Assembly (NCBI GenBank): GCA_008632985.1 | Contig: QPGO01000200.1 | Coordinates: forward strand, 1 to 64,000 | Source: Psammoneis japonica | Taxonomy: Eukaryota | DNA: 64,000 bases | Direction of reading: 5' to 3' | In this document: in pieces, positions 1 to 59,667 of the stretch | Layout of the letters: every line of letters starts with the position of its first letter | Position numbering within the stretch: the first letter of the stretch is position 1 | Notes under the pieces: model-generated | Database searches by the model: none | Told to the model about the DNA's origin: nothing | What the model saw: only the letters and a program-made list of their open reading frames with translations | Position numbers and translations under genes: made by a program

Positions 1-1520
1 TGCAGACACGGAGCTTGAAATGAATGCGAAAGTGTCAGGTGACACGGTTGAGGAATTGAATTCCAAGACAGAAGCAACACTGATGACCAAAAAGAGTCAG
101 TGGCCAAGTCATCTGAGGAGAAAGGATTGGGAGCCACGGGTGCGATGTGGAGTCTCAATGCAGAGCCAGCAGTGACCCGACGCAAGGAGAAGGAGGCTGC
201 TGAGATGAATGACGACGTTGACTCAGCTGCACGGAAGAATGTCGAAGACAAAATACATCTAAAAGCAACAGAGCTGTGCGAAAACAACAGCGACGACATC
301 AGAATGCGCGAGAGCTACGACCGCCATCGCAGTGCATGCGGAACCAACTTGCACGCAAATGAAGATTGCTGCATTGCACTTTTAGCTGCATTTCTTGTTG
401 TTGTGAAGCAAGCCGGAGCACAGCCAAAAGTCGCTCATCTCTCTTGCAGAGTGATGAGATCCCGAAAGTCCTTGTGCAACGCCGAAACCAGGTGCCACAG
501 AACAACACACGCAGCCGAAATTGGCAGCAGGTGGGCCCCACTTGTGGCATCTCCAAGCTCTTGATCAAAAACGCTGTTGTGATTGTTCGTGCGCTCGGCA
601 TTTTTTTGTCTTCTCAGCTCCACGAAAGAATGCTGAAGACAAGACGTCTAAAAGCAATGGAGCAGTGTGAAAGCAGCAACGACGGCATGAGAGCATGTGA
701 GAGCTGCGACCGTCATCGCATTCTGTTGACTTGCGCAAGGAACAACTTGTGCGCAAATGAAGATTGCTGCATTTGATGCTGCACTTTTAGTCTTTCCACT
801 TCCATTTGAAACGTTTCGAACAGTGGCTCAAAGATTTGAAACACACCAGTGTCAAAAGCAGCTGTTGAAATCGGTTGCGCAGGGCGACGTTGCCTCAAGA
901 GCACCGTCAAAAGATGGCGCTCAAGCTTTTGCGCATCTTCAGAGTGAAATGTCACTGAAAAAAAGCAAAAGGGGGGACGTGCTGCGGAGACAACAAGTGA
1001 ACTTGCGAGTCAACCGCGTTCTAAATCAACACTCCCTGCGAGTGAAGACTTTGCCGCATCATGTCATGCTGATGCGACGGAGCCCCAAACCCGCGTTCTG
1101 CCAATGGCATGATCTGCTTGGCAAGCTTTTGCTGCTTCACAGATGAACACTGCTGTCCATTTCAACAGCCGCGACCTGACGGGTCAAGCGAACAGGCAAC
1201 TTCCTGCGCTCAAAGACACGAGAGTGACATGGACTCAAGGCCGGAGAGACGCGTTCGATTTGCCCCGACCTCTGGACTTAACTGGCAACACCTGCGCCAC
1301 CTAGAGACAACACGCCATCAAGCAAAATGAGTTGTGGAATGCCAAACGAGAGCGAGCTCTAACCCAGAGGAAGGGCGAGCCATCCTTGGCGATCCGGCAT
1401 TCAAGCTTGGCGAACAACAAACACATCGTGCGAGACGACGAGTTGTGATTGAAAGCGCGAAAGAATTTCCGAGAGATTTTGCACGACCGTTGCTAAATTT
1501 CTCAATCACCATCATTTTTG
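1..1520. repeat. TpA-depleted degenerate repeat or TE-derived block, runs off the left edge
   Basis: Very few TA dinucleotides. Internal direct duplication ~300-385 vs ~690-790 (GAGAGCT.CGACCG.CATCGCA ... GCAAATGAAGATTGCTGCATT). No recognisable protein. Confidence 0.5.
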
Positions 1521-2029
1521 TGCATCGTAGAATGAAATACCATGATTTCGTATGTAGACGATTCGTTGGAACTCGGTGCTTTCTAAAACACTACTGATTC
1601 CTACTTACACTCTACGGCAACGGTCCAAAACGCAAAAAACTGCCGACTGTGACGTCTTTGTCGAGGCCCGAGCTCCAGAATTCTCCAGGATCCAGATCAC
1701 CACTAGCTAGTATACGCGACTACCGGTACTCACCGCCTGCATCCTGAATCCGTCCTGGCACAATCACAATGATGTTGCACCGTGATCGGTGAGTCCTCAC
1801 GCATCACGCATGATGAAGGTCAAAGTGAACACAGATCGAAGATAAAGGACGGAATATCTGAAGAGAAGAAGGAATCGAGATTCTCTACAGTAAGAATCAA
1901 CAGAGAATTCAGAATGGGGATTGAAGAACATGTATTTGTCGAGTCGCCGTCGTCAGAGCTCCGGAGCTGACGCAATCGCAATCGGCTCGCATTCGAGACC
2001 ATCAACGCATAGAGAAACTGTACGGGACT

Positions 2030-2673
2030 CTATTCCTATGGTGCATTCTTTTTCTTTTTGCTCATGGGGTGGCAGGCAATGTGTGAGCCTCGTACGGATT
2101 GTGAACCTCGAAACTTTTGGTACAATTGGGCTGTTCAAGTGCTTGGCTTGTTCACGTACATGGTGACCGTCTCGTTGCCCTGGAGAATGGCCAACTTTTG
2201 GCACGCTGTTGGTTGAGGTTTATGGAAGAACACTCCAGGCCTCGATCTCTATGCCCTACCCACCAAAGATATTTGGAACGTAATGTTTGTTTGGATTGAT
2301 TGGCGTATTGGTATGTACAATGTTTCGTCTCTCGTCTCATAGCCCTTGTCCCTTTCTCCTTTGGAGTATGCGACTTATCTACTGCAGCTATGAGCTTCAG
2401 GCGGAACATGGATTAGAGGTTACTTTATTTTTTGCGATGAGTTTCACGTTTGCATTTCTTGCCTTATGGTGTCATTGGGACCTTCAAATTACGACGGGCG
2501 AATCCAGGGTTTTTGCGATGGAGAGTCTCCCGCCGACATGGTTAAGAAGCACTGGAAAAGGTATTGTTGCCGCGTGTGTGGCGGTGGTAAAGCTGAAGAT
2601 GAAAACAGTGACGCTGAAATGGAAATTACTGAAAGCGAACTTCAATACCGCCACGAAGACCAACAACAAATAA
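2030..2673 (+). pseudogene. Disrupted multi-pass membrane protein remnant
   Basis: Hydrophobic fragments in different frames (FWYNWAVQVLGLFTYMVTVSLPWRMANFWH followed by an in-frame TGA; then ORF 2287-2673). Confidence 0.3.
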
Positions 2674-5115
2674 TTCTGTAGCCGTTTCTTTGGCAAGAGA
2701 CGAGCAGAACTAAGAATGTGGGAATAGGATAGTAATGCATGCGTTTTTATTATTTTTGCAGTTTTGTTCCTGACACACCTTCTTCTTGCGGATGCGATTG
2801 ATCCATTCATTTATTGGCTCAGCTACTTTTTCCGCCAGCCACACAACAGTTAACAAACAAGGAGCCCCTATCTATGCTTGATCTCTATTAACTGCGCTTC
2901 TTGTTTCCATCTCCGTCATTCATACACTTCTACTACTAGAGTAGAGAGTCAGTCTCTAGAGAGAGTGACTCCGCGAAACATGGTGCGATGCGGCGCGCTC
3001 GTGATAATCAAGATTGACGAATCTTTCTGACTTCTTCGACTGGCTTTTGTCTTGCGTCAGCGGCATTAACAACCCCAAACCAACAGCGCACAAAGCAACC
3101 AGGCACTGTAGCTGCAACAGTGCCTGCTTTCTTTCCCAAAGTTTGCCGTCGCGATGAAGCAGGTTTCCATCCTTCTTGCTGTTCTTGCCCCATGTGGTGT
3201 GGAAGCTTGTTCTCCTCGCACGTGTTGGTTTTGTGGTTCTTGGCAGTGGATCAAGCTGCAAGAAGCCACACATCGTCTGTTTTCTTGGCATGCTGAATGC
3301 TGGATCGAGGCGACAGAATGTCAATTTTGGCACATGGTTTTGTTGTCTTCTGGGTTTGATGTCGATGGTCACTGTGGGCAGCAGGTTGGCACACTGTCCG
3401 GACAGGTGGGGATCGATTGAATCGGGGTCCTTTGGCATCTGCAAAGGTGCAGACCTGCGCCATCTTCCCACTGGGGTCACCTGGAGCTGATCTCAGATGA
3501 GGGAATGCAGGATCCCCTGAGGCAACATTGGGTCACCCAAACTGTGGTGACACTCATTCTTGCATTGACGCAGTCGCATGCTTCAAAACTCTTGGGTTTT
3601 GCCACTTGTCTGACAGCTTCAACACCATCTTGCGGAGCATCACCTTGGCTTCCTTGCCAAGTGGTCCACTGCATGACACAACAAAGGGTGTGAAATGGCA
3701 GCATTGTTCAAGACAAGGCTTGAGGTGCTTGCACTTTTTCTCATGTTTGAGGCTTGCCAGGACTTCTCATGGTGTTCTTTTGGACAGGTGCAACACCTTG
3801 TCCGTGTCAGGGATTTTAGAACATCTGTTGCCATGTCTGTCCTGTGTCAATTCCTTCAACATCATCGAACATCACAATTTTCTGCAAATTGGTCACATGG
3901 ACAAATTGATCATTTTAAAACATGTCATGTGCTTGTTGTTGTTGATTGTTGTGTTTTGGTGGCACAAATTGTCACAAAGATTGGCGATCTTGGTCCTTGG
4001 TCGTTTGTCACGACAGCAATTCTGGTGCTGCGATCACACAAAATGCTCCTTGAAAGCTCCACACACAGCACAGCAAGCTTTTCTCACACAGAGGAGACAT
4101 CCTGCTGCACATCCATTGCATGTTCACCATCATTGCAGACCCAAATTTTGTTGTGCCATTTTTTGTGTTTTGTGCTTGAACCCTCATTTTCTTGACTGTT
4201 GCTTTGACTTCAAGACTCGCATTGATTGTGACAAGGTCATCATTGTGTTGTGTTTCACAATTTCATTTAAAAAGGTGGGTTGTTGAGAGAGTCCCGGAGT
4301 TTTTAAAATGGCAGTCGCATCATCGTCAAAGTCCCAAAATTTGCTTGTCTTTGAGGTGCGCATGTTGAAAGACCCTTGATTGCCACAAAACCACAACCAT
4401 TTCTTGCCAAACCAAGAAGGGCCTCACCCAGCTGGTCAACCTTCTCAAAACAACATCCATGTCTTCAATGAACAAAAATGAAGAAGAGTGGCTTAAACAA
4501 GGCCAAGCAATGTGCATGGGCAGGCACTGCATCATCTTGATCTCCGCTCCAAAATCCAAGATCCAGATCCAAGATCCACCTCTGGGAAAAGTCTCACCAT
4601 GCAGGCCAAATCCCACGATCATGCAAAAGCCAACATTGAATTTCTTCCAATTGGAGGAAGAATGCATTGAGCTTGGGTGGTGATGATTGGCAAATTGTGA
4701 CTGTTGTGGATTTTTTTGTGGGCATTGACATTGGAAAGCTGTCTCCCACAAACACTCAACAAATCACAGCAAAAGGAAGCTGCGGGAAAGTCAGGTCATC
4801 TGGTCATGATGCAGGCCACCCTTTGTTCCCGATTTGACAAAATGCACCAAAGCTGGTCTCATTGCGATGTTGCAGCACAGAGGCTGAATGTGGGCTGCAT
4901 GCGTGCACACAGCACAATGGCAAAAAATTCGAGCCAGGCAAGTGCTTGTTTCGCATGGCATGATGGGGTGTCATCACGTGTGTTAAAAAATGCTCTGCCA
5001 GCTGCTTTGCAACAGAGAATGTTTGCTCTGCTGCAAATCATCATCCACAAGTGTGCTCAGAAGAGGAGCATCATTCAAATCTGCTGCTTTCTGCAGGGCA
5101 CCGCACTCATCTTTT

Positions 5116-5605
5116 GCACTTTAATGCCCTCAGCATGCAGTTGTTGGGTTGGTTGTTGGCAAGCCTTGCAACAATCCACCACATCTCTCAAACTGTTCCA
5201 TGAGCTCTGCTGCAGACTGTCAGCGCCCTCAGCCTGCAGTTGCAGGGTTGGATGGTTGCATCAGGGCCTTCTTTCACTTTGGACTCAGCAGTTTCAGGTC
5301 TCGCTCTGGAACGGATTGAATGACTGGTGGCCACAACTGCACCAGATGAGCTCTTTGACACTCCAGCAACATTTTTGAAGTGCTTCCTTGGCTCCACTGG
5401 AGACCTTCAACATGTCCTTGGATTTCAGCTGCACTCTGGAGTCTCAGGAGTTTTGCAGCTCTCACTCTGGTGGCTGGCACGGATTGCCAGTGACTGGTTG
5501 TGGTGGCAGCAACCCTCCACTGCCATTTTCAAAGTGTTGTCTGGGGTCCCATGGAGACCTTCAATGCCCTCAGCATGCAGCTGTTGTGTTGTTTAGTTGC
5601 ATCAG
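5116..5605 (-). repeat. Degenerate tandem repeat (~100-200 bp units), left part, interrupted by the Copia element
   Basis: Recurrent AATGCCCTCAGC(A/C)TGCAG.TG...GGTTG units at ~5120, 5222 and 5562. The minus strand reads PTTNPTTA-like peptides. Confidence 0.6.
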
Positions 5606-5772
5606 TGACAGACATCTGAGATGGGGAGTGCACTCCCTTGTGTCGGACAGACTGGCACAGACAGCATGGAGAGATCCAATGGTCTCTCTCTGCTCACTTT
5701 CTTTCTCATCTAGTGCATGATTGTCATCTGTCCCAGACATCCATTAGATTGTCCCAACACCACCAGTCTGCA
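5606..5772 (+). repeat. Copia 5' LTR
   Basis: Direct repeat of 12313-12489 with TG...CA termini; right end uncertain by a few bp. Confidence 0.85.
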
Positions 5773-6054
5773 AGGTTGTGAGCAGCAGTGCGCTGTTCCT
5801 CTTCCTCTGCACCCCTCTGTTGCAGCGCCTGTTGTGTGATTTGGCAATTTTTCTTCGTTGAAATCATCATCATTGTCACAGCTGTTTTTTCGCCTCTCGA
5901 TTTGTGATCGGATGACCACCGTAGAACACATGCCAGAGCTCCATGCAGGAATTTGATTTTTTTCCCGCACAACCATGGTGAACAAAAATCAAAATGCCGT
6001 CGATTTGACCATGATCAAGTCGATGCTGGTTGAATTCAACCCGCACACAATCGC

Positions 6055-7929
6055 TTGCCCGTTGCACACCTTTTCCTGAATGCCCTTCATTTGGACGAGA
6101 TCCCTGCTCCTGAAGATCTTCTGGATGGATTTGCTCCTCAAGGCCTCAAGCGTGACGCTCTTGCAACTCTTTGTCATGAGATTGTCCAAGACCTTGTCAT
6201 TCCTCAAGCTGCGCTTGCTGAAGATCTTGCGTGCATTGGACCACTCATTGACAAGGCTCCTCTCTTTGTGGCTTCTCCTCAAGGCTCTCAGGTTTGCCTG
6301 AATCTCACCAATCTTCAGAAGACTGTGATCAAGGCAATCTCAGAAGGCCATGACACCATGACGACACATGTTGGGACTGTTCGTCTCCATTTTTGTCCTG
6401 GTTTCCAGCATTGTGATTGTTGGGACGACATTTCTGACATCCCACACCCAAACTCGCCATCTGCTTCAAGTTCTGCACCTCCACCAGCTGCTGCAGCGGG
6501 ACCCACACCTGAAGACTTTGCTGAGGCCTTGGCCACTCATTTGCCTGGTCCAAAACAGTTTGAGCAAGCTGTGACCAAAGCGCTGAAGATGTCCACTCCT
6601 CCCACACCATCTTTTGCACCGTCTGCCATGACTGCTGCTGCGGCGGCTTCTTCCTTGACCACTGCCAGTGCTGTGCACACCTTCAATCCAAAAGGACTTC
6701 CCAAGGATGTGCTGGCTCACTGTCAACACAAGGAAGCCGGGAAAGCAGTGTCAGGGAAGTCGCTGGTGCCCCACAAGTCTGGTGACCCACACCACGAAGA
6801 TGGTGCTGAGCACCTCATCCTCACTGATGGTTCTCTCTTCATCCATTGCATTGATTGGGATGCCAAGTCCTTCCTTCGTGATCCTCTCACTTGTGATGAC
6901 ATCTCCTCTCAAGGAATCCGTGCATGGTGCACCACTGCAACCCTGCAGGCCTCCGCTTGTGGCATCTGCATGCATCCTCTGTGGTGTTTTATCAAGGACA
7001 GTGGAAACTGGGGTTTCACCTGTGGCAATGATCCAACAGATGATCTCCCACTCCAGATGACAGCAGCACTTGACAGAATGAAGTTGACTGTCTTCCAGTG
7101 TGTTCAGAAGGTTGGAATTTTTCTGGCGGACTCTGGGCACCCTGACATTGTTGGTCAATGCTGTGGAGATGGACATGCTGCCATCAAGATGATCCTCTTT
7201 GACATCTTGCCAATTTGGATGAAGCGTCCACATGAGTTGATCAAGAGCTGCCCACACCAAAACAATCTTGCAATTCTTAGCTGCTGTGCTCCATTCAGAG
7301 ACTGTCTCCAGCTGCGGGCAATTGTCTCCAACATTGATGCTTCTCTTGATGACCCTGGAGAGCTGGATGTTTTTCTTGGCAATGCTTGCTGTGGAGAGCA
7401 CCTTCACCATAAAACAGCAGATGCCCAGGAAGACAAGAACAAGCAACACAAGTTCACCCAGAAGAAGATTGTTGAAACCGTCAGTGCGATTCTCAAGGAA
7501 CTGGATGGTCCTGCTCTTCGTGTCAAGGATCCTCCCAAATGCCCTCCACGTTGTCTCCACAACTCGTCCAACCCTTCTCTTGCAGCTCCTGTTTGAGGTC
7601 TCAACTTGCTTCCCACAGATGAGGTGTCTGCTCTGCCTCCAGTTGTTGAGGAGACTCCAACGGAAACTGAGCCTCCCACTGCAGAAGAACCTGCAGATGC
7701 CATGGATTGCTTTGTGAATGAACTTGCTGCTGTGGACATTCCTGCAGATGATGACGCACAGGCACTGCATGGCATCCACAAGGCATGCATCTGCAGGATC
7801 AAGTCTTCACCTGTCATTGCACAGACCCGTCTGTGTGTTGTTTGTGGTGACAGCCACTTGTTCCATGAGTGCCCTGCATTGAACAATGCTGAGCACCACC
7901 CAAGCACCCATCTCACCCAGTTCCACTGA
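6055..7929 (+). pseudogene. Copia gag remnant
   Basis: 513-aa ORF with no Tyr, followed by a frameshifted CCHC zinc-knuckle ORF (7606-7929). Confidence 0.75.
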
Positions 7930-8269
7930 AGCACCTCTTTCCTGTGCATCATTTGCCAACCTTCTCTCGGACTCGACAAAGGCTGGCACTCCGGATCCCA
8001 AGACAATTTCAGATGATGACCCTGACAATGCCAATCAGGGGAGGGAACCATCTTTTCAAGAACCTTCTGCACAAGATGCTGATGTCCCTCTGTCCATGGT
8101 AGATCAAGACCAAGACTTTGAGCACCTTGATGTGACCACCACCCAACATTTGTCACCTCTCAGTGCAGCACGCATCTCCCTGATTTTTTCTCCGCCAAAA
8201 TCCCCTGCAACTTTCACGTCATTGAACAGTCCAATTGTCCCTGTCAATCATGTGCTTCGTGATTCAACA

Positions 8270-11200: not shown

Positions 11201-12180
11201 ATTCAATGGCATTGATGTCATCCAGAATGATGACTCAATTGCTGTCAATGTTGCCAGTCACCTCAATCATGTTTTCAAGACTCATGGATGGGACGCTCCC
11301 ACTGTGAATGAATCTGATTCTGACTTCAAAGCTGCTCCTGTTCCAGTTGATTGCATTTCTGATCTGTGTGCCACTGAAGGCCCTGCCAAAGGTGCTCCCG
11401 AGCATGATGCTCTGTCTGAGTCCCAAGGTTTCTCCTGCCATTTGGCTCTGGGTGAACTGGTCTTTGCTTGCTTGTGTTGTTGCTTGGACGTTGGTTGCAC
11501 CATTGTCACTTTGTCCAAGTTCTCCAAGGCTCCAGCTGAAGTTCATTGTGACTCTCTCAAGCACATGGCAAAGTGTTTGTGGCGTGCCAAGCATTGGGGT
11601 TTGATGCACAAGAAGGCCAAGTGTGATCCTGGTCTTCCTCCTCATGATTTTGAATGGCTTGAGGATGATCCCTCTCTTCCTGACTTCCCTCATGCCAATG
11701 ATCTGTTTCAGCTTCTTGGTTTTATTGATGCAGCTCATGCCAATGAACTTTGGCATTGATGGTCTGCCACTGGCTGCGCACATGTCCTTGCTGGTGCTGC
11801 AATTGATTGCCATTGTTGCGCCCAAACGATTGCGGCTGCCAGTTCCACGGAAGCTGAATTTCTTGTGGCTGTCATGGGTGCCAAGCAGACTCTCTACCTT
11901 CGCATGGTTCTTGAAGAATTGGGATTTCCCCAACGTGATCCTGCTCCCTTGCACATTGACAATTCCTCTGCTGCCCAGATGATCAACAACAAGGTGCCTG
12001 CAGAGCGATCCCGCCACGTTGATGTTCACAACATTTTGCGATCCAAGACTGGCGTGACACAGGCAAGATTGTCACTCAACATGTCCCGGGTGTCATCAAC
12101 CCACTGATGCACTGACCAAGGCTGTGGGCTGGACACTTCATTCCCGCCATGCCCGCTGTTTGATGGGACATTGCCGTTGA
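8270..12180 (+). pseudogene. Copia pol (PR-IN-RT-RH), fragmented
   Basis: ORFs 7886-8938, 9038-9964, 10660-11307, 10887-11759 and 11865-12107 carry the motifs listed above, with many frameshifts and TGA stops. Confidence 0.88.
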
Positions 12181-12312
12181 TTGTTGTCATGTTTGTGGAT
12201 CAAGTCTTGGGTGTGTTTCTCATTTGTTTTTTGCCATTCTGGTCCTCTCTTTTTTGTTCAGATTGTCTCTTTTCTTTCTTGATGAGCTTTTGCATTGCTC
12301 ATCAGGGGAGGG

Positions 12313-12489
12313 TGACAGACACCCGACACGGGGAGTGCGCTCCCTTGTGTCGGACATGACTCCAGACTGGCACAGACAGCATGGAGAGATCCAAATGATC
12401 TCTCTCTGCTTTCTTTCTTTCTCATCCAGTTGCACGATTGTCATCTGTCCCAGATGTCCATTAGATTGTCCCGACACCACTGGTCTGCA
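12313..12489 (+). repeat. Copia 3' LTR
   Basis: Direct repeat of 5606-5772, preceded by a polypurine tract. Confidence 0.85.
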
Positions 12490-12491
12490 AG

Positions 12492-12885
12492 CACCAGTGT
12501 GTCCTTCAACTCTGGAGTCAGGAGTTTCATCTCTCACTCTGGCATGGATTGTGAGTGGCTGGTGGCAGCAACTTTGCCAGATGAACCTTGCAACACTCCA
12601 CTGCCATTCTCAAAGCGATCTCCCTGGGGGGTCCACTGGTGACCTTTAATCCCCTCAGCCTGCAGCTGTTTGGTTGGCTGGTTGCACCAGTGTGTCTTTT
12701 GACTCTGGAGTCAGGAGCTTCAGCTCTCACTCTGGCACGGATCAAGTGGCTGGTGTGGCTGCAAATGCCCACCACCAGATGAGCCTTGCAATGCCAAGCC
12801 GCTGTTCTCAAAGTGTTCCTTTGGTTCCAAGTGAGACCCTCAATGCTCTCAATCCTCAGTGGTTTGGTTGGTTGGCTGCAGTCTC
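12492..12885 (-). repeat. Right part of the tandem repeat interrupted by the Copia element
   Basis: Same units as 5116-5605 (ACTCTGGAGTCAGGAG...CTCTCACTCTGG; CCTCAGCCTGCAGCTG). Confidence 0.6.
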
Positions 12886-46520: not shown

Positions 46521-46675
46521 GAGGTGGACAAGACCTCCGAACCGTTCTTGTTTAATGTCGGTTGGACAACCCGATCAGGCTGGCCAAATTTGGCGCTGTG
46601 GAGGGACGAACAAATGTGGGAAATGCACCCTCGCCCCAACGCAGGCTGTGATCACGAATTGCTTCCTCTCGCAGT

Positions 46676-47054: not shown

Positions 47055-47089
47055 TTGTGCATGCACACCACAGAAGGCAACTAGTTCAA

Positions 47090-48243: not shown

Positions 48244-48329
48244 CTTGCACCACAAGAGGAGTCTTGCGCACTGCTGGACATCAGGAAGCCCAGAAAAAGG
48301 GCCAAGATGACTCACACTGGTCCAGTTGT

Positions 48330-51300: not shown

Positions 51301-51431
51301 AGAAATTAGAACAGCCCCATGTTGGACTGCATGCAATGACAACGGCACATGCCAATGGCACAGCACAGATCAAACGCGGCAACGTCATTGACGCTGTCAA
51401 CATTCGTCGGACAATGCCGTTTAATGACTGA
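48330..51431 (+). pseudogene. Gypsy pol (PR-RT-RH-IN), fragmented
   Basis: ORFs 48936-49139, 49173-49721, 49661-50257, 50386-50838, 50747-50980 and 51150-51431. Confidence 0.92.
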
Positions 51432-51457
51432 CTCTAATGTGCAATTGGGGAGGCGAA

Positions 51458-51836
51458 TGCAATGTGCGTTGTCATGCACATTGTGCATGTGCACATCTGC
51501 ATGTCAAATAAATTTGCGCTCCAATCGTGCGTCAATCGTGGGTTCGTACAAAGGACAGATCAATCACACAGAGTTGGTCGGATGACGAGAATCGCAAATG
51601 CGATCGTACGATGATGTTGACATCTTGCGTGTCAATGTCAATCGCATCCGGACAATCTGTTGTCCCGATCATGTTCTCCGAAAGGCCTTTTGTCTGCAGG
51701 AGCAGTGCAAAAGGTTTGGGCCATTGAGAACCCATTCGGAAAAATCCAAAATGATTGCGCAGAAATGACTCTCACAATTTTCACTTTTTGAACTTCGCTC
51801 TACTTTCGTTTGCACTCGTTCTTCGAGCACAGTGCA
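51458..51836 (+). repeat. Gypsy 3' LTR
   Basis: Direct repeat of 46676-47054, directly after the PPT. Confidence 0.95.
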
Positions 51837-52654
51837 CAGTTGTCCTCGTGGACCCTGCAGGACTGCAGAAGACCAGCAATCCGGTGCAGATGCGAGGCGG
51901 CAGACTTGGCGTGCGCAGAGCAGAGCCAGAGTTGGGGATTTGTGTCGTGTGTGTGTGAACGCATTCGGGTGCATTGGCAGGATCCGCTGCAAGGAATCCG
52001 GAATCTCAGATGTCTGAGAATTTAGGAATTCCCAGCCAAACAAACATCCGTTGAAAACAAGTGTGTCCAACGATGGGAGGTGTCGGATGAATCCAAACGT
52101 GTGGATTTAATCCAGCACTCAGCAGTGAAGAAGGCAGATGTGTGCTTCCACCGCCAACCGTGCGCATCATCGAAAATTTCTCGATGACGATGATGAACGC
52201 TCAATGGACAACAAAGAGCAAGACCGCCAATCTGACAGAAAATGAAGACAACTGGGTGGAAGAAAACAACAACTCCTCACTGCTGTCTGAGCAGCAGATG
52301 AGTCTCCGTGCAGAGACCATTGCAGGAGCCGAAAGACTGGTGTCGTGACATCGGTGCTGCTGTTGTCATTCTTGTGAGCTCTGTGGCTCGAAAGCAAACT
52401 ACATCGCGCGACGCGCGCGGAACTGAGAGCACACATGATTGTGTGTGACAAACTAAAATCTTGTTCAAATCCTGTCAGCGCGAAAGTGCAGCGTGGTTTT
52501 GTGCTGTCCTCAACAATCGACCAAGCCGGTCATTTGACACCTGACCTGACCCAACAAGTTAAAGCAGGCTTTGATGATTGTGTCTGGCGGTTGGACAGTG
52601 TTAAACAACCTGAGGTGGCTTTCATAAGACAACCAGCAAGAGGACACATTTTTG

Positions 52655-53260
52655 GTCGTGAAAATCCACGTTGCGGAAAAGTACAACGCGGTTTGTACTG
52701 GAATTGACGTAGAATTCTACAGGGATAATATTTTGAGCGCCGTTATTTTTAAATATTGTGGATATTCGTGCCGAATGGGGCATTGACATGCTAATGCTAA
52801 TTATTATATATCATACGATGACATACATGTATATATAATCCTGGCTGCACTTTCCTACAACGGTGTGGAGAATGACCGGAAAATGACTGTGACCCAAAAA
52901 TCGTACACTGTTGCACAAAAGCGCAACGATGCGCGGACCAGGGATGTGATGTACCCTGATTATCATAGAAAATCTGTACGAAAATCAAAATCTGTACCTA
53001 TTTTTGAGGGGCTTGAAAAAATCTGTACCTATTCTGCACGGAAATCTGGAATCTGTACCCCAGTGCAAATGTACGTAGGATGTACGTAGAACGCGCCAGG
53101 CCTACCTGGAAGGGGTTCTTCAAATCTGAGAAAATCCAAAGCCAGTTTTAGCAAAATCAATGAAAATCTATACTTTTTGAGAATCTGTGCCTATTTCTCC
53201 GGAAGCCTTGAAAATCTGTACCTGTTTTAAACCAAAATCTGGAGTGCAGATTTTCTATGA
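52655..53260. repeat. Structured terminus-like region with an inverted repeat and clustered AAAATCTGTAC motifs
   Basis: CGTTGCGGAAAAGTACAAC (~52668) versus GCTGCACTTTCCTACAACG (~52844). AA(A)TCTGTAC at ~52970, 52988, 53018, 53050 and 53212. Confidence 0.55.
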
Positions 53261-53599
53261 TAATCAGGGTACTGCATCTACAGCATCGCGAAACCCATGC
53301 AGTTTTGAAGTTCACGCGGTCAAAATCTACGGTGCAGCATGCAACAGGTTCAAGGTGTGCACGGAAATTCTTCCTCCAGGCCAGCTGTCTCACATTGACA
53401 GTTTCAAGTTGAGCGTCTTGTTGCAGAAAAACTTGTTGTTTCTCTCTCTCCTCTCTCTTTGATGCACTGCATGAAGATTTGCTTCTTGAAAGCCGTGCTT
53501 GGCTTTCTCTGTGTCCCTGCCTTTTGGGCGGATGCAAAGCTCCAGTGTGAACATCGGGGCCCAGGTTTCGGCAGCCACAATCCAAAGGCACGCGCTTGC

Positions 53600-56500
53600 A
53601 GCTTGACGTGCAAGTTGGATCCCTGCGGCAAGTGAAGTCAAGACAAAAATCGACAGGTGATCCATTCATGTGGCATGTGATGGCATCAACATGGACAGCA
53701 TCTCAAAGTCCATTTTGTTCTCTTTCCCTTTTGCTTTTGCTCTTTCAACTCCATCCTTCTCAAGGTCCAAAAGGGCTGCGAGATGCCGCCTCGTTCATCA
53801 CAGACGAGTTGGCACCAATGTCCATGTTGGTCTGCTCATTGGGTGATGAAGAAAGCGGGAACATCTTGAATCTTTACAACTTGCTCATGGTTGTTAGAGG
53901 CATTGCTGTGAACAACCCCTTCTGTGCAATTCGCTCCGACTGCTTCACCGTTTGCACCATCATCAGGCCGATCGATGTAATTTCGAACATCGTGAGGAAA
54001 GTGAGAAAGGCAAGTGCTCTCCTTGTGTCTCATTGTGCCTGTGAGACGCGTCTCCACACTGTTCACACACATCAATTGTTGCCACTTGTTTCCTTCGTTC
54101 TGACAATGATTGGCTTCAGGTTCCAGTCCTCAAAACGAGGGCGGAAAAGATTGAAAAAGGATGGAAACCAGCCAGTTTGGTCAACAAGTTGGACAAAAAA
54201 CTGGAGGAAAAGTGCAAGCAGTTCAGTGGTTTCAAGGGCAGAATCGTCGACAAAATCCTGGGTGTGCTGGCCAAACTCATTTGCTGCTGCAAGCTTGCAG
54301 AGCCTTTTCTCACCAACTTGTGTGCGACTCCCTCTGTGAAACAAACAATGACATTGCTGTCTTCAAACGCTTTGCGGATGTAAGTTTCTTGTGTGATCCC
54401 CCGCAGACTTTTTTGCTGTGACATCTCTCTCACGCTCTTTCCCCATTGTCTGTGCAGCTTTTCAAGTGAAGAATTCGGAAGAAGCAGCGGGAGAGAAGTC
54501 TCTTGAGGGGCAAACCCCGAAACGGCACTGCGACAGTGGGGGATCTCATTTCGGATGAGGAAATGCACGAATCGTTCCACCACGCTCTTGCGAATGTCGA
54601 AGATCCACACGCGGCAGCCATGCTCAAGAAGTGGCACATTTTGCGTTTTGACCAAATTCGGAAGATGCCATTTGACGAAGTCCAACAAGTCCAAATGAAC
54701 ACCATGGTGAACGGCCGACGTCTGGGTCCAGTGGAAGACTTTGATGACACGGATTTGAGAGCTGTGCTTGATGCTTTGCAAGACTGGGCTGGTTCGTTCC
54801 AGGCAATGGACAAAAAGATTGGCGAGCTCAACGATCAAGTCATCATTCCAGCACAGGAGTGCATTGGGAAATTGTTTTCTGAAGATGGCATTCTCAAGAC
54901 CATTGCAAGGATTCTGGAGCCAATGCAGCCAGTCTTCAACGTTCTTGATGAGATCTCTCAGCATCTCGAGTGTCTGGCATGCCCCGATGAATTGGGCTTC
55001 ATCTGTGATCTAGACCAAATCATTGAAGACGAAGTGAAGAAATTGTCAGCGAAGGCCGGAATTGACGTCGATGCTCTCATTGATGCCTTCGTTGATGAGA
55101 TCACTGGTGCTCTAGAAGCCCTGGGAGTTCCTGCACCAGACGTCATTGATGCAAATGTCCCCAATCTGGTTGATTTGCCATCACTGGAAAACTTTGAGGC
55201 ATTCTTCCTTGCTCCGCTTGAAGCGAAACTCGAAGCGTTTGTGGCAGCTCCAAACATTGATCCACTCAAACAGCTCTTCGACCGTTCAGGAAATGTGGAT
55301 GTGACCGCAGGAACCAGCGCTTTTGAATGCTTGTGCGCATCAGTGTCCAAACAAAATGCTGTGTTGCTGGATTGTCCCAGTTCCGAGTTTCCAGTGGCGC
55401 TGAATGCAAAGAGGCAAACGGCCGTTTGCGAATGTGACGAATTCTCTTCAAGGGTTGTTGCCCCTTGCGGAACTGATGGGTCCCGGAGCTCCTGCGACAT
55501 TGACGGTGCAATGCACGGCCGTTCAGACTGCAACGGTGAACCAGTGCTGCCCATCAGTGATGTCGCAGGCATTGATTCCTCGCAAGATTTGCTCAGAGTG
55601 TCTGCCAACTGCATTTGCGCCACTCCGACAGAATTCAAGGATTTGGGCCTCATGCCGATCTACTTCACTGAGGAAGACCCCAATTCTCTGCAGTGCGGCC
55701 TTGGAGAGCAGATCGCTGTCTTGAAAGCGGTTGCGCGGGATCCTTGCGAAACTGGCCGGGCTGCTAACGAGAAATCTCCTTTCTTCAGAGAGTGGAATTG
55801 TTGGTGTGATCTCAGTGTCAGGTTCATGAATGACCCCCTCCCAGGCAACTCAAACTTTGAAACCATCTTCGATTTTCTTGTTGCTGTGAAAATGTCGCGT
55901 GACCAGCACCATGACGATTTGACAGAGTGTGCAAAACTCAACCAAAAAAGCTTTTTGTGGGTCATTCGGACATGAGCGAAGATTTTCCGGGCCAGTTCCA
56001 GTCCGTCTGTGCTGAGGATCAAATGGCGATCGTTCGTACAATGATTTTCTCCAAGACGGTGGCTCGAGCAACAGTTGCGACACGCATCAAGACACTCATC
56101 TCGAGTGCTTTTGTGATTTTGAGTGCCCCTCACCCGACGGTTGGGACGACTTTGATGATCCAGATTCACTGGTCAACGATTGATGACATTGGTGGTGGAG
56201 GCTGGTGGTGTGACTGGGATGAGCGGTTCTCAATTACGGCGGCAGCCTTTGGCAATCTGGCAGGTTTTTGGGAAAAAGGAAGAAACAGAGCTGCAGACAT
56301 TCTTGCCGATGCCCTGAGTTTTGAAGCAGAGTGTCTTGAGATTCTTCAGGAAGAATGCGATGGAGAGCAGCAGTGTGACCTTGTCAACTCAAATCAGTTG
56401 CTTGATTGTTTCGCGAGCTGCCAAACCAGTTCAGGGAACACCGTCCCATTGCAAAACACGAGATTTCTTGTTCGTGTTTCTTGGATGGTCGGGACATCTC

Positions 56501-58373
56501 AACGCCTGGGAAAAATCTTTTCATTGCAGTTGGTTTTCGAGATGCTGCTGCAAGCAGCATGACTTTGGAATGCCCAGAGTTTGGTGTCACAAACGTCCTT
56601 TCAGCGGAGGCAGGTGACGGAGGTTTTACCAACAAAGTGAACTTGGATTGCAGGGGCCAGACGGACAGAACTCTGTCGTCATCGACAACAACACTTTGGG
56701 AGTCACCACCAGCGCATTTGCATTGAGTGCGAATGCATTTGTGAGGCTCCCAAGATCCCTCTGTTGGTCTACAACAAGGACACGTCTACTTTCAGCTGCG
56801 ATCCATGCAAAAAGGGAACGCATTGGGATGCCAGCATGGCAGACTGTGAAGCATGTCCCCCTGGAACTTTTTGGACTTGGATTCCGGCGCGTCAAGTTGC
56901 ACGAATTGCCTTGCTGGGAGCGTCAGCCGGATGCGGATTCTCAACCTGCATCGACTGCTCTCCAGGGACATGCAACCCTTCGGACAGTCAAACCGAGGAA
57001 AAAGCTTGCCTTCCTTGCCCTGTGAACCGGTTCAACACTGATGCAGGAAAGGATTCCTGCGGGCCGTGTCCTGCAGGGTCTGAAGCACCCTCGGAGGGTG
57101 GCACAGCATGTGCCAAAGTCGCGAGGGTTTCTTCTCTTTCAAGGGGGAGTCCGCTGAACCATGTCACCTGGTGCTTGCAGCAATGCTGAAGGGGCACCTG
57201 ACAGGTGCGTGGACTGTCCAGAAGGGTCATTCGCAGCCAACGAGGAAGCGAAAATTGTGAGCGTGCCCAATCGACACATGCGCGGATGGCAGGGAATGTG
57301 AGCATCCAGTGGCAGGAAACCAGGGACAGTGGATGCCATGGTGTCAGTCTGGTCATGACTGTACTTGATGAGCTCGTCGGAGTGTGGCAGTGGGGATGTG
57401 GACTGGGCAATCTGGAATGCGACGCAATGTTGGAGAGCCGCATTGGTCAGCTTGGAAATGGCATGCAACAAAGGTGGTGGATGGAATGCGGAACAATGCG
57501 GGTGCGATGGGGGAGATTGCTGTCCTCACACATGGCATGCTTTGGATCGCTGCTGTCGACTTGTCACGCCATCTTTCTTCGAGAATCTGGTGCCAATCCA
57601 TTCTTTATGCGTGTTTTTCACCAGCACGATCCCTGATGATTTTGATCCAATGTGACAGGTGTTGGCACATTGGAAAATCTTTGTTCCTGGAGCACTTGCA
57701 ATTGTCTTGATCCAAGGCATGCGGTGACGCCGTGCAGCATTGACAGGGAAGAACTGTGCTCTGAGACCGGTGTCACACCAAATCAGTTCCTCCAGCTTGT
57801 TTGGATCGCCCTCTGACGGCTTCTGTGACTCTGAACTCAACACCAAAGAATTCAATTTTGATGGAGGTGATTGTTGTCTTGGAACTTGTGTCAAAACCAC
57901 TGGCAGGTGGACAACGGTCTGGCATTTCTTCCTCTGCTTTATCATTTCATGCCACTCATTGGATTTCTCACGTTTCTTTTGACTTTCAGATCCGGCATCA
58001 TGCGAAGAGATCCCATGCACGTGTCTGGCTCCAATGCCAATGCCTTCAAACATGCCATCAATGGAGCCCAGTGCTCAACCCAGTGCAGAACCCAGTGACC
58101 AACCCAGTGAATGCCAAGCTCCCAACCCAGTGTAGAGCCAGGTGCACGTGCTCACCTCATGGTTCTCGAGGTGGAAGAGCTTGTCACCGCTGGCACTCTC
58201 CGGCCAACAAGAGTGCAAACATCATCAAGAAACTGGAAAATTCAGCCAAATTTGTCGACCAGGGCAACTGCAGCAGTGCCATTGTTCAGATGGACATTTT
58301 CAAGAAGAATCTGCTCAAGAACGTGACTCCAAGTGAAGCAAAGAGTTTGATTGAGACTGCCAACAACAATTGA
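53600..58373 (+). pseudogene. Large multidomain Cys-rich extracellular protein gene (GCC2_GCC3/TNFR-like repeats, LNR/Notch repeats, PS-rich stalk), inactivated
   Basis: CEACPPGT, CLPCPVNRFN..GKDSCGPCPAG, CDA..N..QCGCDGGDCC, DGFCDSELNT..FNFDGGDCC, PSNMPSMEPSAQPS. The 490-aa ORF 54503-55975 has a single Tyr; many frameshifts. Confidence 0.7.
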
Positions 58374-59667
58374 TCAGCTGACTTCTTTTTGAATTGAGCT
58401 GGGCCTGCGGGAAATGGCAAATTTTGCCAAATTGTTGGATGAACACTGGAAGCATCATTTTTGTACAGTTCGCCATTTTTTTTTGACGGGGACATGCAAT
58501 GATGCGAAGTGAAAAGTGCTGATGTCAACACCCCTTTTTCTGAAGACAAACTTGTGTTTTCGGGGAAAGTTGCCCATCATTGGTGATTCAAAAAGCACAG
58601 AAACACAGCGACCTTTTCAAAAACATTCATGTTCTGAACGCCCAACAACACAAAAAACAGCCTTGCCCAGGGAAATCGAGCACAGCAGCAGCAAAGTCCT
58701 CAGGAATGTTCATGACCATGCAATTCGTCAATCTTCAAGCCTTGAGAAGAGCTGGCACACCAGCTCATCTCCTTTCTTGCGCAAACATCTGCTTGCCCAC
58801 AACAGAAACAACGCAGTCGTGGTCTCAGAACATCTCCGTCTGCAGCTTTGTCAGGCCCCGCAGCAGGGTCAGAGGACATCTCGCAGGATGTTCTCTGCTT
58901 TTTGCTTGTTGTGCAGCCAAGACAAGTCCTCGACACACCAGCCAGGGAACATGGTTCACATCGACTTCATTTGCATCATTCTTGGATGTGGGGCCTGCTG
59001 CTTGCCCAGTGCAGCAGCAATGTGGTCATGGTCCAGATCCCAGAGTCATGAGTGCAAATGCCTGCCAACCCACGACAGCACTCTCAAGGTTGTGGCCTGT
59101 TCCAGCTCCAGGTGATCTGCTTTTCATCACTCGAGAGGCCGATTTTCTGTGCAGTTCAGTGCAATTAACTCCTTCAATTTTGATCGTTTCGAAAATCGAA
59201 AGGTGAGTGTACACCCGAAAATGCATGCAAAGTGTGCACCTGCCCTTCGATTTGGCAAAAACGGACTTGGAAAAAGTCAATTGCGCCAAATGCACAAATT
59301 TCCAAATGATGGGAATCGAACCCGCGCGGAGCACCTGGAGCTGGAACAGGCCTTGTCGTTTGCAACAATGAATCATCTGGCATCAATGACAGAGCTGCTT
59401 AGAGATGAAGTCCAATTTTATGATTGGGCACCGGCATGGAGCAACGATGACGTGCTACACAGGCGGCTGTGCTCCAAAAATCTGTTAGTCTGTCCATCAC
59501 TCCGTCATTGGGCTGCCAATTTACAGTAGGGCCCTATTTCGACTTTCGACTTTCGACAAGCTTTTTCGACACATGACAAAAACAACTGACACAATGAGGA
59601 TCGACGGGACGCAAACTCCGTAGGTGTTTCTTTTATAAGGCTTACCATATCATACTTACAGCTCGCA

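Follow-up and report, generated by a model that had tools for sequence, protein, structure and literature searches.

Probable local TpA-to-TpG/CpA hypermutation of transposons and other silenced or foreign-like sequences after integration in a diatom-like stramenopile

Introduction

Fungal RIP converts CpA to TpA, leaves AT-rich DNA and creates stop codons. Hypermutation at TpA itself was first described in 2026 in Bigelowiella natans, where 230 of the 231 mutations found in two viral inserts of mutation-accumulation lines were A>G or T>C changes, and every one of these lay at TpA (Mettrop et al., 10.64898/2026.01.13.699255). The sections of this preprint considered here further report that TpA depletion is coupled to CpA and TpG enrichment in clusters, that targets can be single copy, and that TpA-poor genes are enriched for reverse-transcriptase and DDE domains (10.64898/2026.01.13.699255).

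The current study deals with a window of 64,000 nucleotides, i.e., the whole stretch of DNA that was analyzed. A preliminary description, made from the sequence alone, had proposed a new and undescribed system of repeat-targeted hypermutation. The claim of novelty has to be withdrawn, since the same TpA-to-TpG/CpA hypermutation of foreign DNA was reported for B. natans (10.64898/2026.01.13.699255). The window probably records a local hypermutation from TpA to TpG/CpA that strikes transposons, as well as other DNA of a silenced or foreign-like kind, once they are part of the chromosome, a process that would be of the same kind as in B. natans, with LTR retrotransposons as its presumable main target. 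Because the host genes of the window match diatoms and B. natans is unrelated, TpA hypermutation is thereby documented for a second lineage. New aspects are the transposable elements as main target, a flanking-base rule, and protein inactivation by missense changes only.

Results

Six blocks with a total length of 34,912 nt contain 180 TpA, and the 29,088 nt outside contain 1,328. The flanking rate predicts about 1,594 TpA for the blocks, and the Poisson probability of 180 or fewer prints as 0. TpA rho is 0.05 to 0.14 across the six blocks versus 0.54 to 0.87 across the six stretches between them, and the list of TA positions shows that TpA density changes at the block edges within about 50 nt. 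The depletion is thus real and very strong, and the sharply bounded, nearly TpA-free blocks and the normal TA content of the intervening genes were correctly recognized in the preliminary description. The following features are relevant.

1 to 1527, no strand assigned: TpA-depleted block 1, running off the left window end; CpG kept (TA n=11, rho 0.12; CG rho 0.93)
2958 to 13130, forward strand: TpA-depleted block 2, Copia-like LTR retrotransposon (~5100-12900) plus left part (2958-5100); CpG decayed (TA n=39, rho 0.06; CG rho 0.32)
17241 to 25563, forward strand: TpA-depleted block 3, old Gypsy-like relic; CpG nearly gone (TA n=27, rho 0.05; CG rho 0.12; TG rho 2.01; CA rho 1.83)
40182 to 40683, no strand assigned: contrasting MITE-like element of ~500 bp with 23-bp terminal inverted repeats (40182-40204 and 40661-40683, 95.7%), repeated in X1; TpA kept
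40966 to 42545, no strand assigned: TpA-depleted block 4, single-copy depth in X1; CpG kept (TA n=12, rho 0.13; CG rho 1.05)
45579 to 52681, forward strand: TpA-depleted block 5, Gypsy-like element nested in another high-copy repeat (outer parts 45579-46675 and 51841-52681) (TA n=67, rho 0.14; CG rho 0.75)
46676 to 51836, forward strand: Gypsy-like LTR retrotransposon in block 5 (5' LTR 46676-47054, 3' LTR 51458-51836, TG..CA ends)
53280 to 59485, forward strand: TpA-depleted block 6, relic of a large gene of cellular type, rich in cysteine; high-copy repeat at the end of the block (~58677-59343) (TA n=24, rho 0.06)

Within the blocks, TG (3,564) and CA (3,567) are enriched to the same extent and reach rho values of 1.71 and 1.61, compared with 1.17 and 1.09 outside. 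Some individual blocks have slightly unequal numbers of TG and CA (z up to ~4). The surviving TpA are unclustered (variance/mean 0.6 to 1.8, P at least 0.06 in every block). Together with the strand outcomes in the LTR pair described below, which do not come in runs (12 versus 11.2 expected), this shows a strand-symmetric process that hits sites independently of their neighbors and covers the blocks uniformly. In the somatic hypermutation of vertebrates, Pol eta introduces A>G changes at both TA and AA, and error-prone repair by a polymerase of this type, acting at WA and recruited to silenced repeats, had been among the initially suggested mechanisms. It is improbable here, as ApA is not depleted (rho 1.24 inside versus 1.12 outside), ApG is not enriched (0.98 versus 0.95), and a near-total, uniform and unclustered TpA loss without strand runs is unlike patch repair.

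Loss of CpG and loss of TpA are separable, because blocks 1 and 4 have lost TpA and kept CpG. The CpG loss of the two oldest blocks, 2 and 3, thus comes on top as an independent process of the usual 5-methylcytosine type. CpG depletion was absent from the preliminary description.

The blocks comprise a Copia-like element, two Gypsy-like elements, further repeats and the gene relic. The Copia-like element of block 2 has repeated ends (5158-5798 and 12285-12880) and matches SH3_retrovirus in 9008-9964 (E 6e-9) and, below the cut-off, RVT_2 in 10797-11759 (E 4e-4). In block 3, positions 20758-22404 match intact Gypsy pol ORFs in a tblastn search. The Gypsy-like element of block 5 is flanked by the 4-bp target duplication CAGT (46672-46675 and 51837-51840) and has a purine tract before the 3' LTR, a gag-like ORF (46973-48091) and a pol region (48253-51499) with the domains RVT_1, RT_RNaseH_2 and Integrase_H2C2 and a match to the Ty3 reverse transcriptase (E 5.5e-30). 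No Pfam family reached its cut-off in a profile search of block 1.

Copy number was assessed with X1, i.e., the contigs of a public run that may share its sample with the window's assembly. Block 4 has an X1 depth of 62 to 95, compared with ~57 for unique DNA, and the summed depth of block 5 is 4,500 to 40,000; X1 contigs that join 46669 to 51835 represent the empty site of its outer repeat. Block 6 is at single-copy depth (50 to 92) before the depth rises to 11,472 in the bin 58677-59343. Its relic contains an ORF (54470-55972) and Ephrin_rec_like repeats (56641-57186, E 7e-9). Among 1.84 billion representatives, 14 homologues were found (best E 1.7e-26), and four of the nine scanned homologues have Ephrin_rec_like repeats downstream of the matched part. 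The MITE-like element has an X1 depth of 1,152, and one X1 contig skips 40183-40685; in 500-nt windows its region has a TA observed/expected ratio of 0.97 (40001-40500) and 0.80 (40501-41000). A 5.4-kb non-transposon gene relic at single-copy depth was accordingly hit, while the two short MITE-like repeats adjoining the blocks were spared, so that the term "repeat-targeted" is not supported for the process.

The consequences are most conspicuous for tyrosine. Two long ORFs of transposable elements, 6034-7596 (521 codons) and 46973-48091 (373 codons), contain no Tyr at all, as noted earlier, and six host ORFs have a normal content of 1.5 to 4.2%. Across all six reading frames, Tyr amounts to 0.15% in the blocks versus 2.57% outside. 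In 32 columns that are Tyr in 59 intact relatives, the window has Cys in 14, His in 8, Phe in 4, other residues in 6 and Tyr in none; the replacement of conserved Tyr by Cys or His thus applies to 22 of 32 columns. Control residues were retained at 62 to 86% (Phe 25/29, Trp 17/21, His 13/17, Cys 8/13). In an alignment to Ty3 (4OL8), the catalytic YxDD motif of the reverse transcriptase reads CIDD. Among 120 reverse-transcriptase homologues from public assemblies, five have Cys or His at at least four of nine conserved Tyr columns, and one of these five has all nine replaced and no Tyr in 312 aa.

Polarity was deduced from a consensus of the 59 intact relatives; as in every test of this study, ancestral states were inferred. 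Of 725 columns, 294 are changed and 154 could be resolved as a single step. The polarized spectrum comprises 39 A>G changes (26 with 5' T) and 21 T>C changes (18 with 3' A), so that TpA is the site of 44 of these 60 changes, besides 28 G>A (5' C in 17), 11 C>T (3' G in 8) and 55 transversions; the relatives are only 55 to 63% identical, and the transversions mostly reflect family divergence, as perhaps do some of the transitions. Relative to the Gypsy relatives, the loss of TA plus CG is 49.0 and the gain of TG plus CA 53.5 per 1,000 tetranucleotides. Less-mutated family mates were found at 82 to 90% identity. These comparisons show that TA is ancestral and that TG and CA are derived.

The loss of TpA depends on the flanking bases. 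Among the surviving TpA of the blocks, TTAA is enriched 6.1-fold, and ATAT is represented by 0 of 175, compared with 104 of 1,253 outside. Retention relative to the intact relatives is 0.00 for ATAT, 0.03 for ATAG, 0.05 for ATAC, 0.11 for ATAA, 0.14 for GTAC and 0.50 for TTAA. ATAT is hence lost fastest, followed by ATAG and ATAC, ATAA, GTAC and the C/G-flanked sites, with TTAA as the slowest; this order is consistent with an additive contribution from the base on the 3' side of A (T > C >= G > A).

Modified motifs cause systematic errors in long reads. A heavily modified TpA could be miscalled as TG or CA depending on the strand, with the consensus picking one of them; a modification on both strands would resemble the random choice between TG and CA, and no sequencing technology is recorded for the window or X1. 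Such a base-calling or polishing artefact is nevertheless distinctly improbable. X1 contigs at an even, unique depth of ~57 reproduce the TA-poor sequence with 98 to 99% agreement in the blocks, albeit possibly from the same sample, which is not expected from a k-mer assembly of noisy reads, and the Tyr-to-Cys/His pattern recurs in the five homologues from unrelated public assemblies. The blocks moreover carry frameshifts and CpG decay that are typical of real dead elements, and the B. natans mutations were called from Illumina reads (10.64898/2026.01.13.699255).

The window and X1 differ at 42 positions in 3,062 nt of blocks versus 8 in 3,619 nt of host DNA. TG/CA double differences are located at 41860/1 and 42507/8 in block 4, with TG in the window and CA in X1, and at 45655/6; position 42481 (block 4) is CA in the window and TA in X1, and X1 has four TA-to-TG/CA changes in 40055-40092. 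The process must be recent, as X1 differs from the window by further TA/TG/CA changes.

Both LTRs of an LTR retrotransposon are identical at integration. Those of the Gypsy-like element in block 5, the one clean pair of the window, are 88.8% identical in bases and 98.7% identical as purine/pyrimidine. The 45 mismatched positions in 379 aligned columns correspond to 12 adjacent TG/CA doubles, 4 TA versus TG/CA differences, 7 CpG-type changes, 6 other transitions and 4 transversions. Seven of the 12 doubles fall within 30 nt of alternating purines and pyrimidines, where the alignment register is uncertain; the gap-free 336 columns contain 4 doubles, 4 TA versus TG/CA differences, 6 CpG-type changes, 7 other transitions and 3 transversions. 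There are 17 pairs of adjacent mismatches, whereas 10,000 random placements gave 5.2 on average and never more than 16. Estimated with 18 conserved and 7 half-decayed CpG, fewer than one double would stem from CpG. The ancestral LTR would have had about 13 TpA in 336 nt, matching the flanking density, of which about 77% would have been lost since insertion, and TpA decay would be roughly ten times the CpG decay. Overall, the LTRs and X1 show that TpA was mutated after integration and that mutation still went on after the window genome and X1 had diverged.

To our knowledge, ADAR is confined to animals. ADAR-like A-to-I editing of retroelement RNA, or editing of cDNA, fixed by reverse transcription would be compatible with the 5' U preference of ADAR and with the edited retroelements known in animals (10.64898/2026.01.13.699255). 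Editing before integration is nonetheless very improbable, as LTRs are copied from one template and yet differ at TpA-derived sites, the outer repeat of block 5 and the non-retroelement gene relic are equally hit, and a locus with a fixed chromosomal position shows such differences between the window and X1. The element families could finally be TpA-poor by nature, e.g., through avoidance of UA-cutting nucleases, and most genomes indeed have slightly less TpA than expected, as does the host DNA of the window (rho ~0.6). This explanation is hardly credible considering that TA rho is 0.58 to 1.06 across 78 loci from metagenomes that belong to the same Gypsy clade, none of which is below 0.58, that most of the LTR TpA would have been lost since insertion, and that an active element under selection could not have lost its catalytic Tyr residues.

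Discussion

The favored post-integration process would be an A:T-to-G:C transition at the self-complementary dinucleotide TpA that proceeds almost to saturation and ends abruptly at the target boundaries. The agent would be an enzyme, steered to its targets by chromatin state or small RNA. Owing to the genetic code, an in-frame stop is never created and TAA and TAG are erased. As no stops are made, proteins are inactivated by missense changes only (all Tyr to Cys or His, Ile to Thr or Met, Val to Ala), and long open frames remain.

The preliminary description had placed the mutation on the A of TpA. The A:T-to-G:C transition at TpA, on either strand and after insertion, is borne out by the LTRs, the spectrum, the Tyr columns and X1, but the attacked base is not, because TpA is self-complementary and the signature is the same whether A or T is attacked. 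On an even balance, we prefer deamination of adenine to hypoxanthine in DNA at 5'-TA. Attack on the thymine by a TET/JBP-type dioxygenase, with 5-hydroxymethyl- or 5-formyl-uracil mispairing with G to yield T>C (A>G on the other strand), is rather unlikely, though all counts fit it equally well. Dinoflagellate 5hmU reportedly prefers TpA and TpC, and 5-formyluracil yields T>C; 5hmU, however, pairs well with A and is weakly mutagenic. Dinoflagellates, which also belong to SAR, have a TET/JBP homologue producing 5hmU; this base is enriched on repeats and keeps transposons silent (PMC11572971). The authors of the B. natans preprint favor adenine deamination and found an ADAT2-like candidate, whose gene is, however, universal (10.64898/2026.01.13.699255).

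With respect to known systems, the dinoflagellate TET/JBP marking resembles the process in the window as an enzymatic modification of A:T pairs that is aimed at repeats, the enzyme being presumed here; 5hmU is described as an epigenetic silencing mark rather than a mutator, and the sections of that report considered here describe no link to TpA loss (PMC11572971). Deamination of 5-methylcytosine in methylated transposons likewise turns a self-complementary pyrimidine-purine dinucleotide into TpG/CpA, but it hits CpG instead of TpA. APOBEC3 (C>U, cDNA) and ADAR (A>I, dsRNA) of animals are comparable as deaminase-type hypermutation against mobile or viral nucleic acid. They act before integration on cDNA or RNA, whereas here chromosomal DNA is hit after integration, on both strands and also outside retroelements.

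Fungal RIP is likewise a dinucleotide-specific transition hypermutation that acts in situ on both strands of integrated mobile DNA, stays strictly local and destroys coding capacity. Its polarity is opposite, as TpA is removed here, GC is raised and stops are impossible, and while RIP depends on duplication and a sexual phase, a stretch at single-copy depth was hit here and short repeats were spared. The closest counterpart is the process of B. natans, in which TpA alone is hit and gives TpG or CpA (10.64898/2026.01.13.699255). The systems differ in the host (a diatom-like stramenopile here, a rhizarian there), in the targets (LTR retrotransposons and a cellular-type gene relic versus giant-virus and virophage inserts), in depth (rho 0.05 to 0.14, near saturation, versus 0.45 for the B. 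natans NCLDV insert) and in the basis of the timing (LTRs and strain or allele differences versus mutation-accumulation lines in real time). Neither the flanking-base rule nor the inactivation by missense alone, both described here, is mentioned in the Results and Discussion of the B. natans preprint.

Extent and composition of the TpA-depleted blocks

The observed/expected ratio (rho) of TpA, which normally lies at about 0.4 to 1.0 in 500-nt windows, falls to 0.00 to 0.21 in six stretches (blocks 1 to 6), whose edges are resolved to about 50 nt in lists of TA positions. The DNA between the blocks within the 64-kb window has a TpA rho of 0.54 to 0.87.

TpA-depleted blocks of the window
Block 1, 1-1527: TpA rho 0.12, CpG rho 0.93
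Block 2, 2958-13130: TpA rho 0.06, CpG rho 0.32
Block 3, 17241-25563: TpA rho 0.05, CpG rho 0.12
Block 4, 40966-42545: TpA rho 0.13, CpG rho 1.05
Block 5, 45579-52681: TpA rho 0.14
Block 6, 53280-59485: TpA rho 0.06

Altogether, the 34,912 nt of the blocks contain 180 TpA versus about 1,594 predicted from the flanking rate (Poisson P printed as 0). This depletion of about 8-fold, with its sharp edges, bears out the almost TpA-free blocks that the preliminary description had claimed from the sequence. The loss of TpA goes with a gain of CpA and TpG, as in hypermutation of the Bigelowiella natans type; TpG (n = 3,564) and CpA (n = 3,567) have rho values of 1.71 and 1.61 in the blocks versus 1.17 and 1.09 outside. 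The remaining dinucleotides, CpG excepted, are little altered, and the GC content of the blocks (0.47 to 0.54) is equal to or higher than that of the flanks. Error-prone repair of the Pol-eta type, one of the mechanisms initially considered, would cause A>G changes in WA motifs, i.e., at ApA as well as at TpA. This candidate did not hold, since ApA is undepleted (rho of 1.24 inside versus 1.12 outside the blocks), and the ratio of ApG is 0.98 versus 0.95.

CpG loss is strong only in blocks 2 and 3, which are also the oldest-looking ones, and the younger blocks retain CpG. Since TpA is gone but CpG kept in blocks 1 and 4, whereas both are gone from blocks 2 and 3, the loss of CpG is a separate process; in blocks 2 and 3 it is compatible with cytosine methylation of old transposable elements (TEs). 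Fungal repeat-induced point mutation (RIP) acts through C>T (G>A) changes, typically CpA>TpA, which enrich DNA in TpA and make it AT rich, and is rejected on the strength of the 8-fold TpA deficit and the GC content. In line with the earlier statement that neither RIP nor CpG decay removes TpA, the polarity of RIP is opposite, and CpG is kept in blocks 1 and 4.

Tyr makes up 0.15% of six-frame codons in the blocks versus 2.57% elsewhere, and the two open reading frames (ORFs) that had been described as devoid of Tyr indeed lack it, compared with 1.5 to 4.2% Tyr in host ORFs. Alternating purine/pyrimidine tracts with mixed TG, CA, and GC steps (e.g., CATGCATGTCATGTGTG...) are found at 20494-20732 and 46690-46720. 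They fit what TA->TG/CA change would make of an earlier (TA)n repeat or TA-rich stretch, and this origin of the tracts explains the raised GpC (rho of 1.17 versus 1.01). Isolated N bases occur at 26020 and 38564 in otherwise clean sequence.

Contents of the blocks and of the neighboring DNA

The elements recognized in and beside the blocks were compared with contigs of a public sequencing run (X1), in which unique DNA has a depth of about 57.

Mobile elements of the window
Block 2: Copia-like element with SH3_retrovirus, a weak RVT_2 match, and repeated ends
20758-22404, block 3: old Gypsy pol relic
46676-51836, block 5: Gypsy-like element with 379-nt long terminal repeats (LTRs), TG..CA ends, and a 4-bp target duplication (CAGT)
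40182-40683: MITE-like element with 23-bp terminal inverted repeats, summed X1 depth of about 1,150 versus 57 for unique DNA
About 52951-53272: MITE-like element with 29-bp terminal inverted repeats, summed X1 depth of about 610 versus 57 for unique DNA

The element at 46676-51836 has the LTR ends, the target duplication, and the pol order (reverse transcriptase, RNase H, integrase) of Ty3/Gypsy elements. Its domains were detected as RVT_1, RNase H, and Integrase_H2C2, a purine tract precedes the 3' LTR, and the reverse transcriptase matches that of Ty3 with an E value of 5.5e-30. It is surrounded by an outer repeat, both halves of which are equally TpA poor, and X1 contigs span the empty site. 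Both MITE-like elements adjoin hypermutated blocks and still have normal TpA; an X1 contig omits 40183-40685, so either the insertion is polymorphic or its flank is repeated.

Block 6 has a different content. A search of 1.84 billion representatives with its 501-codon ORF yielded 14 homologues (best E value, 1.7e-26), Ephrin_rec_like repeats lie downstream in four of the nine homologues scanned as well as in the window (E value, 7e-9), and the block is present at single-copy depth in X1 apart from its right end, where a high-copy piece lies. These features identify block 6 as the relic of a cysteine-rich gene of cellular type and not as a recognizable TE. In an alignment with homologues of 23 to 32% identity, too noisy to serve as evidence, 35 Tyr residues of the homologues correspond to no Tyr and 11 Cys or His residues in the relic. 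A weak SET-domain match (E value, 1e-5) lies in the host ORF immediately to the right of block 6 (59590-60432), and nothing connects it with the hypermutation.

The content of blocks 1 and 4 matched no identified element, and in a Pfam scan of 124 further ORFs within the blocks, only Integrase_H2C2 and Ephrin_rec_like exceeded the cutoff. A comparison of the unassigned block parts in purine/pyrimidine code revealed no kinship (best score, 43.5; highest score among 20 shuffles, 40). An initial BLAST in this code had returned hundreds of chance matches, and its use was restricted to the LTRs.

The genes between the blocks encode an MRS2-like transporter, QueH, a DDX51-like helicase, a kinase, and a SET-domain protein, and host genes have long exons and few introns; the genome of B. 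natans, which is not the source of the window, is intron rich. All six named best matches of two host genes are from diatoms, i.e., Phaeodactylum, Fragilaria, and Mayamaea for the helicase (51 to 55% identity) and Attheya, Chaetoceros sp., and Thalassiosira profunda for the MRS2-like transporter (50 to 54%); an identical protein for either was absent from the database searched. The QueH-type epoxyqueuosine reductase domain (32260-33468; E value, 4e-58) resides in a eukaryotic host gene. The family is predominantly bacterial, and the gene could have been transferred, or its product could be targeted to an organelle. Contigs of a second data set (X2) match only host genes and are uninformative on expression of the blocks. 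One of them joins 43868 to 43954 and drops 85 nt (43869-43953) within the helicase gene; it resembles a spliced transcript and may thus reflect cDNA, although X2 is not recorded as RNA.

Polarity and timing of the changes

At integration, a retrotransposon carries two identical LTRs, and those of the block-5 Gypsy element now share 88.8% of their bases and 98.7% of their purine/pyrimidine strings. The 379 aligned columns contain 45 mismatched positions, of which 24 form 12 adjacent TG<->CA doubles; the others are 4 TA<->TG/CA, 7 CpG-type, and 6 other transitions and 4 transversions. Seven of the 12 doubles fall within a tract of alternating purines and pyrimidines, whose alignment register is uncertain, and the 336 gap-free columns retain 4 doubles in addition to 4 TA<->TG/CA, 6 CpG-type, and 7 other transitions and 3 transversions. 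Adjacent mismatch pairs (n = 17) exceed the mean of 5.2 and the maximum of 16 in 10,000 random placements. A TG<->CA double arises when an ancestral TA became TG in one LTR and CA in the other; given 18 intact and 7 half-decayed CpG, less than one double would be expected from CpG. From the counts, the 336 nt would have had about 13 ancestral TpA, which agrees with the density of the non-block flanks, and some 77% of these would have disappeared since insertion, compared with 3% divergence at other sites, which suggests a per-site rate at TpA of the order of 100 times that elsewhere in the LTRs. Editing by ADAR or APOBEC prior to integration is rejected, since the LTRs differ at TpA-derived sites and DNA other than retroelements is hit as well.

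The direction of change was also read from 59 intact pol ORFs of metagenome relatives of the block-5 element. Of 32 consensus Tyr columns, none is still Tyr in the window, and 14 read Cys and 8 read His (22/32), in line with the replacement of conserved Tyr by Cys or His reported in the preliminary description; the catalytic YxDD motif of the reverse transcriptase reads CIDD. Retention of the control residues Phe, Trp, His, and Cys is 62 to 86%. A polarized spectrum of this one pol region (725 consensus columns, 294 changed, 154 resolvable as single steps) comprises 39 A>G changes (26 with a 5' T), 21 T>C (18 with a 3' A), 28 G>A (17 with a 5' C), 11 C>T (8 with a 3' G), and 55 transversions. 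Hence, the TpA excess that the hypothesis predicts is present, 44 of the 60 changes inferred as A>G or T>C being at TpA. None of the 78 best-scoring, i.e., intact, related Gypsy loci is TpA depleted (rho of 0.58 to 1.06). Relative to these relatives, the element has lost 49.0 TA plus CG and gained 53.5 TG plus CA per 1,000 tetranucleotides; although these totals agree, the balance per context correlates by only 0.09.

X1 contigs at unique depth carry the same TA-poor sequence as the window. The two versions show 42 differences over 3,062 nt of block sequence versus 8 over 3,619 nt of host DNA, a density about six times higher in the blocks; among the differences listed are three TG<->CA doubles and one site with TA in X1 and CA in the window. 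The process therefore went on after the two versions, be they alleles or strains, had split. To the left of block 4, at 40055-40092, an X1 contig whose depth of 45.6 is close to that of unique DNA has four TA->TG/CA changes in sequence that is TA normal in the window, and the hypermutated zone seems to extend further left in the other allele or strain. Taken together, the LTR pair, the spectrum, the Tyr columns, and X1 support the central inference of the preliminary description, A:T->G:C change at TpA on either strand after insertion.

Site preference, coding outcome, and possible chemistry

The choice between TG and CA is independent at neighboring sites (12 runs versus 11.2 expected), strand-coordinated runs were sought and none was found, and both outcomes are equally frequent overall, with slight inequality within single blocks. 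Surviving TpA are randomly scattered, so that there are no protected patches, and survival depends on the flanking bases: TTAA is enriched 6.1-fold and CTAA/TTAG 2.5-fold, and ATAT accounts for 0 of 175 survivors versus 104 of 1,253 outside. Compared with the intact relatives, retention is 0.00 for ATAT, 0.03 for ATAG, 0.05 for ATAC, 0.11 for ATAA, 0.14 for GTAC, 0.19 to 0.22 for CTAC/GTAG, CTAG, CTAA/TTAG, and GTAA/TTAC, and 0.50 for TTAA. The mixed contexts are reproduced by an additive model in which the rate at each A is set by its 3' base in the order T > C >= G > A. According to the genetic code, TA>TG/CA never creates an in-frame stop and erases TAA and TAG, so that long Tyr-free open frames result and inactivation proceeds through missense changes alone.

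High-copy elements are targeted, as are stretches of single-copy depth (at a likeness of at least 90%), and repeats of about 0.3 to 0.5 kb beside the blocks are spared. Since hypermutated copies soon diverge beyond 90%, copy depth cannot decide whether targeting depends on duplication.

The mutator is thus TpA specific, strand symmetric, active after integration, and regionally targeted in its A:T->G:C changes, and it is presumably enzymatic. Chromatin, small RNAs, or the length or copy number of a stretch may direct it. A single hit leaves no TpA on either strand, hence TA is not carried on to CG and CpG is not enriched. Deamination of adenine at 5'-TA would be our first choice for the chemistry, a choice that could well go either way. 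The thymine of TpA may be attacked instead; the dinucleotide is self-complementary, so the signature would be the same for either base, and the SAR lineage offers a precedent in 5hmU made on dinoflagellate transposons by a TET/JBP enzyme, as described in the accessible part of PMC11572971. No literature on dinoflagellate 5hmU at TpA was found. For any candidate deaminase or dioxygenase, the flanking-base rule provides a concrete prediction of its biochemistry.

Wider occurrence and implications

Unrelated public assemblies provided 120 reverse-transcriptase homologues, five of which (P0152, P0191, P0226, P0173, and P0231) have Cys or His at four to nine of nine conserved Tyr columns, and one of these five is without any Tyr in 312 residues. 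When the five are compared with family mates of 82 to 90% identity, the substitutions are of the types Y<->C/H, I<->T/M/V, and V<->A, as predicted for TA-containing codons, and the same mutator is probably active in other uncharacterized protists.

A far-reaching interpretation, which we put forward tentatively and consider somewhat doubtful, is that a programmable DNA-editing defense, either ancient or spread horizontally, is common to diatoms and chlorarachniophytes. Such a system would amount to a natural A:T->G:C editor of double-stranded chromosomal DNA with a TpA motif and a flanking rule (ATAT best, TTAA worst). Chromatin or small RNAs would guide it to silenced DNA, including transposons and integrated viruses, where it would erase Tyr and other TA codons without introducing stops. 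If this were true, the five hypermutated reverse transcriptases would imply a widespread system in marine and freshwater protists. A natural enzyme for A:T->G:C change in chromosomes would matter to base-editing work; to our knowledge, all current adenine base editors are derived from an evolved tRNA deaminase. For annotation, long Tyr-free open frames may be mistaken for genes by gene callers.

Comparison with known systems

The preliminary description had regarded the system as undescribed, which turned out not to be the case, since a process of the same kind was very recently reported from B. natans (Mettrop et al., bioRxiv 10.64898/2026.01.13.699255). In the full-text literature, no description was found apart from this 2026 preprint on one rhizarian alga, part of which was available and whose supplements may hold details on context and TEs; the available part of a diatom paper retrieved with the term hypermutation (PMC9258296) was not relevant. 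In mutation-accumulation lines of B. natans, two integrated viral regions received 231 of the 302 nuclear mutations; A>G and T>C made up 230 of these 231, every one at TpA, the rate was some 1,000 times that of the background, and only part of the lines was affected (Mettrop et al.). The same source reports 124 TpA-poor, CpA- and TpG-rich clusters genome-wide, an enrichment of reverse-transcriptase and DDE domains among TpA-poor genes, and modest long-term genomic footprints. Deamination of adenine is the mechanism proposed there, with an ADAT2-like protein as a candidate.

The kind of process is thus already known, and the current study adds mechanistic detail. Relative to the text of the preprint, the TE detail and the flanking context are new, and the supplements might contain such data. 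The near-saturated, independent footprint in a diatom-like genome corroborates the phenomenon of B. natans, and since the best matches of the host genes are diatom proteins, it represents a second lineage with the same kind of process. The host range is thereby extended to a second, ecologically weighty SAR lineage with genetically tractable members, and comparisons gain leverage on the enzyme, which can be sought among genes common to genomes with the signature and missing from others. As in B. natans, A>G and T>C changes fall mainly on TpA, yielding TpG and CpA (TA, TG, and CA states also dominate the LTR differences), and affect discrete foreign or mobile regions, with the remainder of the window being normal. 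The window differs from B. natans in that mainly TEs are targeted and the footprint is far deeper. With ordinary LTR retrotransposons as a main target, the process acts like fungal RIP, but with the polarity reversed.
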